From: a virus
Taxonomy: Duplodnaviria; Heunggongvirae; Uroviricota; Caudoviricetes
Direction: 5' to 3' (one strand)
Virus record (IMG/VR): IMGVR_UViG_2706794668_000007
DNA length: 4,719 bases
Part shown: piece by piece, positions 1-4,719 of the stretch
Position numbering within the stretch: the stretch's first letter is position 1
Layout of the letters: the number at the start of each line of letters is the position of its first letter
Translations under genes and position numbers: made by a program
The notes under the pieces: generated by a model
The model's database searches: none
Told to the model about the DNA's origin: nothing
What the model saw: only the letters and a program-made list of their open reading frames with translations

Positions 1-760
1 GGGGAATATCTCCCCGGCAGCCTTCAGGGAAAAATATCATCAGATGGCTGCTTAAAAAAAGAACAAATGGTAGTGTCCGCTATTGCCAGTACACCTCAGG
101 ATAGCGGTCATGTGATGCCGGTTTCCCGGTAACTCAGCACCGGTATCTGAGTCAACGTTTTCTCTACTGGGTCATTTCCGATACGCCCTGCCTGCTGACA
201 GGCTTTCATCACATCTGAAAATATAGCACCCTGACTGATACTGTAGTACCTAAGGTTCCAGAAACTGTGATGTATCCGGNNNNNNNNNNNNNNNNNNNNN
301 NNNNNNNNNNNNNNNNNNNNNNNNNNNNNNNNNNNNNNNNNNNNNNNNNNNNNNNNNNNNNNNNNNNNNNNNNNNNNNNNNNNNNNNNNNNNNNNNNNNN
401 NNNNNNNNNNNNNNNNNNNNNNNNNNNNNNNNNNNNNNNNNNNNNNNNNNNNNNNNNNNNNNNNNNNNNNNNNNNNNNNNNNNNNNNNNNNNNNNNCCAT
501 GGTTCTTTCCACCATCTGAAAAATAATTCTTTAAAATACCTGACATGTAATACAGAAAAAACACAAAACCATACCTTAAATAAAAACCTGATTATCAAGC
601 AGATATGCATGGATAAACTACAAGACGAGATATAAACCACCCTGCATTTAAATAAACAATAAACAACATCAGAAAAATAATTCTGCTCTATGGTTTACAT
701 TCAAAAATATCATTTATACTTTTCAGAACATCACCAGCAAGGCATAAACAAGGAAACTAA

Positions 761-1096
761 ATGAAGTGGATTGTGATTGATACAGTTATCCAGCCATCAT
801 GCGGAATATCTTTTTCAGTCATATGGAGTAAAATAAAATTAATAATCTGGTATCAATCGGATGCTTTCTTACCTCCTGAAAGTATATTTACACTGACTCA
901 CACAGGCATCATGCTCAATAACAAAGTGCTACCTGTAACCATTTACAACGTAGTACCATTCAATAAAACATTCTGGAATTCAATCAAAAATAGCCAGGAA
1001 TGCCCTACAAATACAGATAACGTATTGAATGAATGCTTTAATAACCGTTGCACTCTGCAAATATGTCCTTATGGACTAAAACAACAAAGTCCATAA
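761..1096 (+). CDS. Hypothetical 111-aa protein encoded in the AT-rich island; unknown function
   Basis: ATG at 761 is preceded by AAGGA (751-755) at 5-nt spacing. Open frame runs to TAA at 1094-1096. The protein has a hydrophobic N-terminal stretch and five Cys, four of them in the last 31 residues (ECPT, NECF, NRCT, ICPY). Six of the Ile codons are ATA. I recognise no homolog. The orientation is opposite to the phage late operon. Caveat: in AT-rich DNA open frames arise easily, and the last 10 codons lie inside a 12-bp inverted repeat. Confidence 0.4.
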
Positions 1097-1099
1097 GGA
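1066..1099. repeat. Perfect 12-bp inverted repeat (tccttatggact / agtccataagga) with a 10-nt loop; overlaps the stop codon of ORF 761..1096
   Basis: Arms at 1066-1077 and 1088-1099 are exact reverse complements. No clean U-tract follows on either strand. Confidence 0.6.
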
Positions 1100-1115
1100 G
1101 TTTACTCACATCTGA

Positions 1116-1152
1116 CAAAATCAATATAAACAGCCCCTCCGGAGAGGGGCTG
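1116..1152 (-). terminator. Intrinsic terminator-like hairpin closing the tRNA-distal segment
   Basis: 9-bp GC-rich stem (1131-1139 cagcccctc / 1144-1152 gaggggctg) with a 4-nt loop. On the minus-strand transcript it is followed by TTTATATTGATTTTG (1116-1130). On the plus strand no T-tract follows, so the orientation is minus. Confidence 0.5.
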
Positions 1153-1347
1153 GAGAGTGGCGCTATGTGCCATTGCATGGTGCCGGGTGCCTCCCGGTGA
1201 ATTCAGTACCAGCACCTGAATCCGCGATTATCCCATATACCTACTCGCTGATTGCCCCTCCGCACAGGGGGATTCACCATGCCAGTTTCTTTTAACAAAC
1301 TCCCCGCAAAACAGACAACTGTCAACCGTCTGAATTGTGAGACATTT

Positions 1348-1373
1348 AAAAAAAAGGCCCGCAAAAGCGAGCC
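1348..1373 (-). terminator. Rho-independent terminator 15 nt downstream of the tRNA-Arg 3' end
   Basis: Minus-strand RNA reads GGCUCGC-UUUU-GCGGGCC (7-bp stem, six Watson-Crick pairs and one G-U) followed by eight U (plus-strand A-run 1348-1355). Confidence 0.65.
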
Positions 1374-1387
1374 AGGGAAAATAAGTG

Positions 1388-1464
1388 TGGCGCGTTGTAC
1401 TGGATTCGAACCAGTGACCGATTGCTTAGAAGGCAATTGCTCTGTCCGGCTGAGCTAACAACGC
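1388..1464 (-). tRNA. tRNA-Arg (anticodon UCU), 77 nt with encoded CCA
   Basis: Reverse complement of 1388-1464 is GCGTTGT TA GCTC AGCCGGACA GAGC A ATTGC CTTCTAA GCAAT CGGTC ACTGG TTCGAAT CCAGT ACAACGC G CCA. It folds into a full cloverleaf: 7-bp acceptor, 4-bp D stem, 5-bp anticodon stem, loop CU-UCU-AA, 5-bp T stem, T-loop TTCGAAT. Its position downstream of Q matches the rare-codon tRNA clusters (ileZ-argN-argO type) of Stx-like lambdoid phages. Confidence 0.85.
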
Positions 1465-1477
1465 ATGATGCAGATAA

Positions 1478-1512
1478 TGGACCGCCATCGGGGACTTGAA
1501 CCCCGCGCAGCC
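1478..1512 (-). tRNA. Second tRNA, 3' half only (T-arm, acceptor 3' strand, discriminator, CCA); 5' half lies in the N-mask; isotype undetermined
   Basis: Reverse complement of 1478-1505 reads CGGGG TTCAAGT CCCCG ATGGCGG T CCA, a canonical 5-bp T stem with a 7-nt T-loop, then a 7-nt acceptor strand, discriminator and CCA. It ends 13 nt upstream of the tRNA-Arg 5' end. The anticodon is masked. Confidence 0.5.
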
Positions 1513-2857: not shown

Positions 2858-2977
2858 GTCTTTTCCTTTTCCGGTTAACGTGACACACCAATAACTCTTG
2901 TCGAAAAAGCCAGCAAGCTGAAAGACAGGTATTCACCGCCACCAGCGCGTTTACTGTACTGACGCGATTTCAGTCAT

Positions 2978-3001
2978 AAAAAACCCGCTCGGCGGCGGGT
3001 T
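2978..3001 (-). terminator. Rho-independent terminator about 40-60 nt downstream of the pR' start (tR'-like)
   Basis: Minus-strand RNA reads AACCCGC-CGCCGA-GCGGGUU followed by a U-run (plus-strand A-run 2978-2983). Its position shortly after the late promoter matches the short terminated pR' transcript of lambdoid phages. Confidence 0.6.
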
Positions 3002-3036
3002 GTAGAAACTCTTCTAACGTCAGGCATAAAACGCCC

Positions 3037-3076
3037 ATCGTTATGACGAATTTACCACAGATTCCGGAAAAATCAA
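3037..3076 (-). promoter_or_regulatory. Late promoter pR' with lambda-type pause element (qut region)
   Basis: On the minus strand: -35 TTGATT (3076-3071), 16-bp spacer, extended -10 TGgTAAATT (3057-3049), then 6 nt and AACGAT (3042-3037). The run GGTAAATT-N6-AACGATGGG is nearly identical in sequence and spacing to the lambda pR' -10 and sigma70-dependent pause element as I recall it. It lies immediately downstream of the Q stop codon. Confidence 0.6.
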
Positions 3077-3081
3077 CCTTG

Positions 3082-3703
3082 TTACCTAGTTACCTTTTTT
3101 AACTGCCGCTCAGCCCATGCTTCTTCAATATCAAACCGGGTCACCAGCGCATCATAAAATTTCTTAACTGTTTTTTCCCATGACGCGCGTGTTATCTGGT
3201 TTGTCACCTCGCATATAGCATTAAATGCCTCCGTTGATGGTAGTCTTTCATAGCCACGACCACCACAACGCTGGCAGTCTCTGATAACAGGCATACCACG
3301 TTTTACCGACTCTTCACGATGAATGGCGACACCACGCCCACGGCAATCCTTACAGGCGGTGGAAACCTCACCCTTTCCGCCACACTCCGGACAGGCAACT
3401 TTTACCACCTCCCTGACTTTTTTCCATTCTTCCCAGTAAGACGGATACACACCTTTCGTACACTTTGCCCATACCGGCGGCTTACCATCCGGATACTGGA
3501 CCTTGTTTGTAAAAACTACGCTTTCAATAAATTTTTCCCCATAGCAACAAGGGCACTGCTTTTTACTCGCTGCGCTGCGGGCATAATCCTCAAAAGCGTA
3601 CGAAGCCATAATGCGCATCACTACCGGTTTTATTTCTGCCGGAAGTTTTCTCAACGCCGCCACACGATCGCACCGACTGAGTGCATAATCTGCCAGTAAT
3701 TCT
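3082..3703 (-). CDS. Q: Late antiterminator Q (lambda Q family), C-terminal 206 aa visible; N-terminus in N-mask
   Basis: The C-terminal region aligns with lambda Q as I recall it: AFEDYARSAA, CKDCRGRGV...DCQRCGGRGYERLP (Cys4 zinc-binding module), and ...FYDALV...KKVTR ending. An extra Cys-rich segment (CPCCYG ... CPECGGKG) is present upstream of the conserved finger. Stop TAA at 3084-3082; last codon is AGG. The N-terminal 19 aa of the track ORF (3954-4011) overlap rusA and are a read-through artefact. Confidence 0.85.
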
Positions 3704-3953
3704 NNNNNNNNNNNNNNNNNNNNNNNNNNNNNNNNNNNNNNNNNNNNNNNNNNNNNNNNNNNNNNNNNNNNNNNNNNNNNNNNNNNNNNNNNNNNNNNNN
3801 NNNNNNNNNNNNNNNNNNNNNNNNNNNNNNNNNNNNNNNNNNNNNNNNNNNNNNNNNNNNNNNNNNNNNNNNNNNNNNNNNNNNNNNNNNNNNNNNNNNN
3901 NNNNNNNNNNNNNNNNNNNNNNNNNNNNNNNNNNNNNNNNNNNNNNNNNNNNN

Positions 3954-4279
3954 AGACGTCCACCAGATACTGGCTGACCACGAACGATATTGATTTCATC
4001 AAACTGCTCATCGTCCATTAACACTCCCGCATGTGTCAGTGCATCCAGTGGTGCTTTCAGGATATTGTCCAGGTCACGACGGCGCTTATCCGGTGGCTCT
4101 GCAATAATCTTTATCGCCAGTCTTCCGGACAGGCTTAATTTCAGTCGCTGCTGACGGACAATAAGCGCCACATCCCGGCGATAACGCTCACCGGCTTTTG
4201 ATACAAAATATGTGTTGTCACGACGTCGCCAGTAAGTATTCACCGTCGGCGGATAAGGTAAAATAAACTCATGGCGCAT
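3954..4279 (-). CDS. rusA: RusA-family Holliday-junction resolvase, N-terminal 108 aa visible; about 12 C-terminal codons masked
   Basis: PPTVNTYW...DKRRRDLDNILKAPLDALTHAGVLMDDEQFDEINIVRGQPVSGGR matches E. coli RusA (PPSNNRYY...[30 protein letters not shown]...VTKGGR) as I recall it, including the catalytic acidic cluster. ATG at 4279-4277 overlaps the upstream stop by one nucleotide (TGATG). The 229-aa track ORF is rusA plus read-through across N. Confidence 0.8.
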
Positions 4280-4536
4280 CAGCGCAGCACCTCCTGCACC
4301 AGTTTTTCAAACTTTCCGACTCTGGTTTCCAGCTCTGCCACACAGTCCACCAGCTCATCTACTGCTTTCTGTGCGCGATGCTTCGCCTGCATCAGTTCCC
4401 GAAGCGCGGGTACCATATCTTTACGGATAGCGTCTTTTGTTATGCCCGTTTTTTCGAGTTGTTCAGCATGACGCAGCATTTCCTGCGCGTGTTTACGCAA
4501 TTGTTCAGGGGTAAAAGTCATTGTCTGGTTGTTCAA
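4279..4536 (-). CDS. Hypothetical nin-region protein, 80-85 aa, charged, predicted helical/coiled-coil; start ambiguous (TTG at 4536 or ATG at 4521)
   Basis: Open frame ends one nucleotide into the rusA start, which suggests translational coupling. GGAG lies 8 nt upstream of the TTG at 4536. The first ATG (4521) has no obvious Shine-Dalgarno. No family recognised. Confidence 0.55.
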   Translation of the reverse strand: MNNQTMTFTPEQLRKHAQEMLRHAEQLEKTGITKDAIRKDMVPALRELMQAKHRAQKAVDELVDCVAELETRVGKFEKLVQEVLR

Positions 4537-4688
4537 AAGAAACGCTCCATCTTACTGCTGTCAGTTCGTTTATTACTGTATCTGCGCGGATTGCCGGGCT
4601 TCATGGGAGTGGAAAGCACCCGTGCACTTTCCTGGTCCACAGGCAGAAAATGTCCGTAGACTGGCCCCCTGAATCTCCAGACAACCAG

Positions 4689-4708
4689 TATCACTTAAAT
4701 AAGTGATA
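4689..4708. repeat. 20-bp palindrome TATCACTT-AAAT-AAGTGATA (8-bp perfect arms); possible protein-binding site
   Basis: Arms at 4689-4696 and 4701-4708 are exact reverse complements. The TATCAC half-site resembles lambdoid operator half-sites. It is upstream (minus sense) of the nin-region ORF at the window edge. Confidence 0.5.
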
Positions 4709-4719
4709 GTCTTAATACT

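Follow-up and report, generated by a model that had tools for sequence, protein, structure and literature searches.

The closest described counterpart of the locus examined here is iraL of uropathogenic Escherichia coli CFT073 and Shigella sonnei, whose product is an experimentally characterised RssB anti-adaptor (Hryckowian et al. 2014, mBio, PMC4045071). In that study, deletion of iraL lowered log-phase RpoS in both CFT073 and S. sonnei and halved the half-life of RpoS in CFT073 from ~5 min to ~2.5 min, and iraL placed under its native promoter raised RpoS in K-12. [quoted passage not shown] IraL raises RpoS in growing uropathogenic E. coli and Shigella and is thought to pre-arm the cells against stress. 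The K-12 homolog IraM (YcgW/ElbA), which has been crystallised bound to RssB (PDB 8TWD; Brugger et al. 2023, PMC10844676), differs in that it also contacts the C-terminal domain of RssB. Further, the literature describes K-12 iraM as induced by Mg2+ starvation whereas IraL acts in unstressed log phase. The core fold of IraM, composed of a β-barrel, a β-hairpin and a helix, resembles only that of PmrD (4HN7), and both proteins bind the receiver domain of a response regulator (PMC10844676). However, the target of PmrD is PmrA rather than RssB and the outcome of binding differs as well. A third member of the family is found in Stx2c and Stx2a phages (for example phage 2851 and Stx2_EH2201), which carry a 107-aa paralog with 74% amino acid identity to IraL in the same position and orientation as iraL.

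The stretch of DNA analysed here (the window; 4,719 nucleotides, IMG/VR record IMGVR_UViG_2706794668_000007) is the late-regulatory region of a lambdoid prophage, read on the minus strand. In minus-strand order it contains an 85-aa ORF (4536-4279), RusA and a Q-type antiterminator (Q stop at 3082), a tR'-like terminator (3001-2982), a 65-aa ORF (2857-2660), a DNA methyltransferase and a tRNA cluster. The only tRNA of this cluster left unmasked, and the last one visible, is a tRNA-Arg (TCT) at 1388-1464 on the minus strand. Four runs of N interrupt the window (280-496, 1513-1750, 2329-2578 and 3704-3953), and the remaining tRNA cluster lies within the masked stretch 1513-1750, at the corresponding place of which relatives have Ile/Met, Arg and Arg. 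Past the tRNA cluster, a terminator scan found a terminator-like hairpin followed by T8 (1356-1373, minus strand). The prophage is IS-disrupted, with the end of an IS600 at window 1-103. An earlier note made from the letters of this DNA had singled out the AT-rich region beyond the tRNAs and its plus-strand ORF at 761-1096, for which no homolog was recognised, as a likely place for an undescribed function.

Our comparisons indicate that this ORF is very probably iraL, a functional, lysogen-expressed 'moron' of the lambdoid prophage. The CDS (761..1096, plus strand, ATG start, 111 aa and a stop codon) is predicted to encode a protein identical to CFT073 IraL at 110 of 111 residues, the sole difference being S74 in the window at a position where CFT073 IraL, K-12 IraM and the Stx-phage paralog all have L74. 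Hryckowian et al. (PMC4045071) distinguished iraL from iraM by a nucleotide identity of at least 95% over 100% of the CFT073 iraL CDS together with a promoter/upstream region that is at least 96% identical; here, 334 of 336 nt of the CDS and 131 of 133 nt of the region from -100 to +33 are identical to CFT073. No base differs between window 497-1310 and S. sonnei 53G, and at least 999 contigs carry precisely this protein, recorded as Shigella IraM. Considered with the IS600 end at 1-103, these matches suggest that the prophage most likely comes from a Shigella genome. The NCBIfam model NF007393 ('anti-adapter protein IraM') matches residues 1-110 of 111 with 162 bits, above its curated cutoff of 121 (E = 4.7e-48), which places the protein in the IraM/IraL/RssC family. 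PHROG phrog_4407 matches the ORF end to end (E = 3e-72), and PDB chain 8twd_A, the RssB-bound residues 1-78 of IraM, is matched with 57% identity over 78 residues (E = 6.3e-31). A DNA search recovered the 784-bp stretch 517-1300 at a coverage of at least 80% from 1429 of 5426 complete E. coli genomes, whose annotation there reads 'anti-adapter protein IraM', and also located it in four sequenced Escherichia phages.

A local Pfam-A scan of the ORF, two homologs and the 78-aa core did not return PF11183 and gave only a sub-threshold match to Nairovirus NSm, unlike the precomputed Pfam tables, which list PF11183:PmrD for family members. We treat the missing match as a library or threshold discrepancy and not as an argument against family membership, and nothing that we found contradicts the identification as iraL. 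The statement that the ORF has no recognisable homolog therefore falls away, as does the proposal of an undescribed function, since the ORF is, by these matches, the IraL of the IraM/IraL/RssC family. The gene, the target of its product, its promoter and its distribution are already known from work that appeared in 2014, and annotation pipelines assign the gene a name; a false candidate for unknown cargo is removed.

The surroundings of the gene also resemble those in CFT073, where iraL occupies the same position, antisense between an STnc100 module and a truncated DUF1737/esterase gene and downstream of Q and the tRNAs. The prophage backbones are nevertheless mosaic with respect to each other, with the window harboring a DNA methyltransferase between Q and the tRNAs and, in its left flank, an IS600 where CFT073 has an IS200. 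The S. sonnei loci match window 1-103, 497-1352 and 2976-4719; the methylase segment is missing from them, and their sequence departs from the window at 104-496.

The -35 hexamer TTTACA (694..699) and the -10 hexamer TATACT (715..720) on the plus strand, both read from the sequence and separated by a 15-nt spacer, are identical in CFT073. TATACT ends 7 nt upstream of window position 728 (plus strand), where the published 5' RACE sequence ACATCACCAGCAAGGCATAAACAAGGAAAC begins and which therefore corresponds to the transcription start. Because the two hexamers lie exactly upstream of this published start, from which their assignment is drawn, they are in all likelihood the real iraL promoter, and the weak sigma70 promoter that had been proposed as possible is supported in sequence, in spacing and in its fit to the RACE start. 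The pair escaped a consensus promoter scan because this accepts spacers of 16-18 nt only; the sites that it did report, at 653-681 and 812-839, are no more numerous than in shuffled sequences. The canonical Shine-Dalgarno sequence AAGGA that had been noted before the ORF is present at 750..754 (plus strand), 6 nt before the ATG. The complementing fragment described as '-100 to +33' in PMC4045071 ends at window 760, directly before the ATG that starts at 761, and the two nucleotides that differ from CFT073 within it are A727G (at -1) and T758C (between the Shine-Dalgarno sequence and the ATG), neither of which falls in a hexamer. The regions upstream of iraL and K-12 iraM could not be meaningfully aligned, and in this comparison no shared PhoP-type or other regulatory region was identified.

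An IraM-type fold is near-certain for the predicted protein given its identity to 8twd_A over the 78-residue core. An AlphaFold2 model from a 16-sequence alignment has seven strands followed by a helix at residues 69-76, with low confidence (pLDDT 59.9; below 50 in the tail). When this low-confidence model was searched with Foldseek, 8twd_A was the sole significant PDB match (E = 7e-6, TM 0.37/0.46), and PmrD was absent from the matches. Overall, the window protein shares 61% amino acid identity with K-12 IraM and belongs to the same length class, with four extra residues (QQSP) at the C-terminus. Most of the residues listed as RssB contacts for IraM in 8TWD (PMC10844676) are conserved here. 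Cluster I, which in IraM docks on the alpha4-beta5-alpha5 face of the receiver domain (PMC10844676), is identical at five of five positions (I4, I6, W22, K26 and I42). Cluster II is identical at three of five (C14, F18 and W30, with T13S and L75I differing) and cluster III at two of four (I61 and Y62, with H63N and I64V differing), and P66 is identical. The substitutions in clusters II and III, which lie on the surfaces facing the C-terminal domain and linker, are consistent with the reported binding of IraL to the N-terminal domain only.

By homology to these systems, iraL in the window would be transcribed from its own sigma70-type promoter, starting at 728 (+1) and running antisense to the late operon of the phage. 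The 111-aa cytoplasmic product would bind the response-regulator-like adaptor RssB; the homology with 8TWD suggests that its barrel sits against the 4-5-5 face of the receiver domain and so prevents RssB from engaging RpoS. RssB bound by IraL would no longer hand RpoS (sigma-S) to ClpXP, and because this delivery would be stopped, RpoS would be stabilised even in exponential growth. RssB binding, the effect on RpoS half-life and the RACE start are taken from the literature on the near-identical CFT073 IraL. For the copy in the window, we infer expression and activity in the host from the promoter, transcription start, Shine-Dalgarno sequence and reading frame, all of which are intact and identical.

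The AT-rich character of the region noted earlier is confirmed. The GC content is 32.2% in 517-1100 and 50.2% in the rest of the unmasked window, with individual 60-nt windows of the island ranging from 25% to 42%. The absence of a minus-strand ORF of 60 aa or more over about 460 nt also holds, as the longest stop-to-stop frame lying wholly between 695 and 1040 on that strand has 41 codons. Two minus-strand ORFs that reach into the island, 108..515(-) and 209..640(-), were rejected as genes because they are open only through translation of masked N as X. Comparison of the slot across related prophages, as the earlier note had recommended, identified the island as exchangeable. Using an iraL-bearing prophage (L006) and the prophage of ATCC 11775 (L008), we placed the cassette boundaries at 502..1128, with the start of the NanS-type esterase/DUF1737 gene on one side and, on the other, the STnc100 module that begins at window 1129. 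Between the same two junctions, the ATCC 11775 prophage has a different segment of 716 bp without iraL. The GC content of the refined cassette is likewise 32.2%. The island is therefore a self-contained cargo cassette that is exchanged horizontally and lies in the Q-to-lysis region of a lambdoid prophage.

The earlier note had also described the island as the place where Stx-type phages carry their toxin. This is right insofar as a cargo cassette sits in the Q-to-lysis region, but the stx slot itself lies elsewhere. Window 647-1344 aligns to positions 5887-6579 of the Stx2a phage Stx2_EH2201 with 70% identity, and window 1347-1512 aligns to 7912-8076 with 92% identity. In that phage, stx2A and stx2B are annotated at 6621-7861, within the ~1.33 kb between the two aligned blocks. 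The stx insertion point therefore corresponds to 1345/1346, and the slot is empty here, at the junction where Stx2 phages have ~1.33 kb with stx2AB. Stx-type cargo, defined by a tRNA-proximal insertion point, location on the late strand and co-transcription from pR' under Q antitermination, is not what we find at 502-1128. Unlike stx, the iraL ORF is on the strand opposite to the late operon and has its own promoter and transcription start.

In phage 2851 and Stx2_EH2201, the 107-aa paralog lies beside stx2B. Since the iraL-like gene adjoins stx2B in these phages, the alignments indicate that stx2 and iraL-type cargo are neighbours rather than alternatives, with the iraL-type gene further down the late strand. 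This corrects the map of the slot: the cassette for an RpoS stabiliser is a constant neighbour of the stx point and coexists with stx2 in some phages. The paralog is convergent with STnc100, lies upstream of the nanS-p/yjhS esterase gene and has its promoter in the same place. Its DNA is ~30% diverged, and because it directly follows stx2B it is carried along with the toxin; in phage 2851 it occupies 24239-24562 of NC_049943 (complementary strand). Of 5426 complete genomes, 236 contain the paralog, named IraM by PGAP, and most phage records leave it without annotation; the literature searched yielded no experiments on it. In the 2014 survey, which did not cover the paralog, matches to iraL and to iraM were reported not to overlap (PMC4045071). 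The same survey identified STEC strains with high log-phase RpoS that do not have iraL (PMC4045071), and the paralog that travels with stx2 could explain these strains.

We also considered whether the island might be non-coding, either a decayed minus-strand late gene or a spacer in which the plus-strand ORF arose by chance. AT-rich DNA, poor in GC-rich codons, can hold chance ORFs, and the GC content by codon position is flat (35/36/33%). However, the reading frame is uninterrupted even in versions whose proteins have diverged by 26% and 39%, and dN/dS is 0.10-0.17 at dS of 1.1-2.0 against the Stx-phage paralog (74% amino acid identity) and K-12 iraM (61%). These ratios point unambiguously to purifying selection on the plus-strand frame, the synonymous-biased conservation that had been suggested as a check. 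Across 17 family sequences 28 columns are invariant, four Cys among them, stop codons interrupt the minus-strand frames at intervals of at most 41 codons, and IraL has been detected functionally and co-purified (PMC4045071). A chance ORF or a decayed minus-strand remnant is ruled out by this codon-level conservation, and we give the non-coding reading virtually no weight. Only slightly less improbable is a small toxin, an anti-phage defence or superinfection-exclusion factor, or a secreted effector in the stx slot, the kinds of undescribed function that the earlier note had in mind. A small Cys-containing protein with its own promoter in an AT-rich, moron-rich Q-to-lysis region would suit such a role, but a near-identical, characterised homolog has a different, demonstrated function and the ORF lies outside the stx slot itself. 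A search of the PADLOC-DB v2 defence models gave no family at E up to 1. Kyte-Doolittle analysis and inspection of the 111-aa sequence revealed neither a TM-strength segment nor signal-peptide features. The N-terminus is hydrophobic in composition, as had been observed, but not to TM strength: no 19-residue mean exceeds 1.44, and D7, K24 and K26 interrupt the stretch. Moreover, residues 1-78 correspond to the strands of a soluble β-barrel that was crystallised on cytoplasmic RssB. On these grounds a toxin, defence factor or secreted effector is highly improbable.

A third reading accepts the gene and questions its relevance: iraL could be intact but silent or irrelevant in its host, a recent hitch-hiker on a decaying, IS-riddled prophage. 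Such a state could result from silencing by H-NS of DNA with 28-32% GC, from S74, or from a defect in rpoS or rssB of the host. The prophage is indeed degraded, as seen from its IS600 end and from related Shigella loci, in which the esterase/DUF1737 gene is truncated and IS21, IS600 and IS1 elements are close by. The island is also very AT-rich, and S74 adjoins the cluster II contact residue 75. Against this, none of the promoter hexamers, the transcription start, the Shine-Dalgarno sequence or the reading frame is damaged, and the contigs that carry this allele show it without decay. Further, deletion of iraL in S. sonnei lowers log-phase RpoS (PMC4045071) and S. sonnei 53G has the exact sequence found here, and the low dN/dS is family-wide. 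We therefore regard a silent or irrelevant iraL as quite unlikely, although less so than the two preceding readings.

If the ORF is a functional iraL, as we favor, its transcript would run toward a convergent prophage sRNA gene. STnc100 was identified at 1122..1311 on the minus strand as a full-length match to Rfam RF02076 (133.6 bits against a gathering score of 47). Terminator scanning and folding of both strands located its intrinsic terminator, a 9-bp GC-rich hairpin followed by a T-run, at 1131..1152 (minus strand). This is the sole strong hairpin past the iraL stop codon, from which it is separated by 35 nt; its plus strand has no U-tract, and it may terminate iraL as well. STnc100 is also present in loci L003, L006 and L008. 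The convergent pair of STnc100 and an iraL-type gene recurs in L006 and, ~30% diverged, in phage 2851, where the order is stx2cB, STnc100 and the paralog. The two have been kept together as a module, placed just past the stx insertion point, through ~30% DNA divergence in the window, phage 2851 and Stx2_EH2201. In ATCC 11775, STnc100 is present in two copies, and the segment flanked by them matches window 98-279 with 100% identity. STnc100 beside esterase genes is discussed in a 2026 preprint on Pas sRNAs, in which neither iraL nor iraM is mentioned. The iraL-type gene and STnc100 share one hairpin, around which their 3' ends are separated by only 10-25 nt. Transcription of iraL may therefore extend into STnc100 in antisense, or late and sRNA transcription may interfere with iraL. 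If true, this interplay would couple the stabilisation of RpoS to the state of the prophage.

The Cys-containing C-terminal region described in the earlier note is also confirmed. The protein has Cys at positions 14, 81, 92, 97 and 102, the last four of which form a C-x10-C-x4-C-x4-C-P-Y-G motif common to IraM and the window IraL. The C-terminal tail of IraM was removed for crystallography and has been called less conserved (PMC10844676), yet C81, C92, C97, C102 and the CPYG motif are invariant in 17 of 17 family sequences. Given this invariance, the Cys4 tail could be a metal- or redox-sensing switch. We consider it doubtful that the stx2-linked third paralog, the Cys4 tail and the iraL/STnc100 module jointly hide something of moderate interest. 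All three could nevertheless seed modest work on the tuning of the stress response by prophages. As a side observation, the convergent iraL/STnc100 module, the stx2-linked paralog and the Cys tail are possibly under-described.

The window contains an empty stx insertion point at positions 1345-1346, the flanks of which match Stx2 phages; in those phages, the two flanking sequences are separated by precisely the segment of approximately 1.33 kb that holds stx2AB. Stx2c- and Stx2a-converting phages were also found to harbor a third IraL/IraM paralog of 107 aa that has no counterpart in the window. This gene occupies 6001-6324 in the loci of both phage 2851 (L003, Stx2c) and Stx2_EH2201 (L004, Stx2a), lies in antisense orientation directly downstream of stx2B and the sRNA STnc100, and shares 74% identity with IraL at a dN/dS of 0.12. 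Our search of complete E. coli genomes identified the third paralog in 236 out of 5426, O157:H7 among them, and most phage records carry it without annotation. High log-phase RpoS has been reported in STEC strains that do not have iraL (Hryckowian et al. 2014, PMC4045071), and the stx2-linked third paralog is an obvious candidate for this phenotype.

STnc100 is likewise present in the window, where a full-length match to Rfam RF02076 (133.6 bits vs a gathering score of 47) spans 1122-1311 on the minus strand. This prophage sRNA and iraL are convergent, with approximately 25 nt between their 3' ends around a single hairpin at 1131-1152. In relatives, RefSeq annotates a pseudogene for a 42-aa "hypothetical protein" over STnc100, at window positions 1167-1295, which is probably a spurious call on top of the sRNA.

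The IraL C-terminus ends in a tail with four cysteines (Cys81, Cys92, Cys97 and Cys102; codons 81-105, window 1001-1075) that are invariant in 17 of 17 aligned family sequences and form the motif C-x10-C-x4-C-x4-C followed by P-Y/H-G. The C-terminal tail was taken out of the published IraM structure and described as flexible and less conserved (PMC10844676), and in the AF2 model the four-Cys tail has a pLDDT below 50. This tail could bind a metal or have a redox role. Domain assignments for the family disagree: precomputed tables give PF11183:PmrD for IraL-family proteins (P0001-P0020; loci L012-L019), whereas hmmscan of four family sequences against a local Pfam-A did not find PF11183 at E-values up to 10.

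The literature places K-12 iraM "on e14". In the RefSeq record of E. coli K-12 MG1655 (L010, 5414-6004) the gene lies just beyond the annotated e14 boundary, in the order e14 end (1211412), icdC pseudogene and iraM (1211680-1212003), with ymgK, ymgL and then the DUF1398 gene ycgX downstream.

At the left end of the window, positions 1-103 are the 3' end of IS600 (IS3 family). Matches with identities reaching 100% occur in 2887 of the 5426 complete E. coli genomes, with as many as 43 places in a single genome, and in 790 plasmids. The same IS600 end adjoins a truncated DUF1737/esterase gene in S. sonnei loci. The segment at 98-279, which carries a minus-strand ORF of 55 aa (stop at 108), is 100% identical to 3001-3182 of the ATCC 11775 prophage (L008). 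There, as in prophages of that type, two STnc100 copies bracket it on the right-hand side of an esterase remnant, whereas in the window its place is left of iraL, adjoining IS600, which implies a rearrangement; a masked run (280-496) obscures the junction.

Downstream of Q, a terminator-like hairpin with a T-run (2982-3001, minus strand) lies just beyond the Q stop at 3082, in the position expected of tR' for the short leader transcript of the late promoter. The sole Rfam result there was a sub-threshold Trp_leader-like match (2975-3081). A second terminator-like site (2673-2656) follows a 65-aa ORF.
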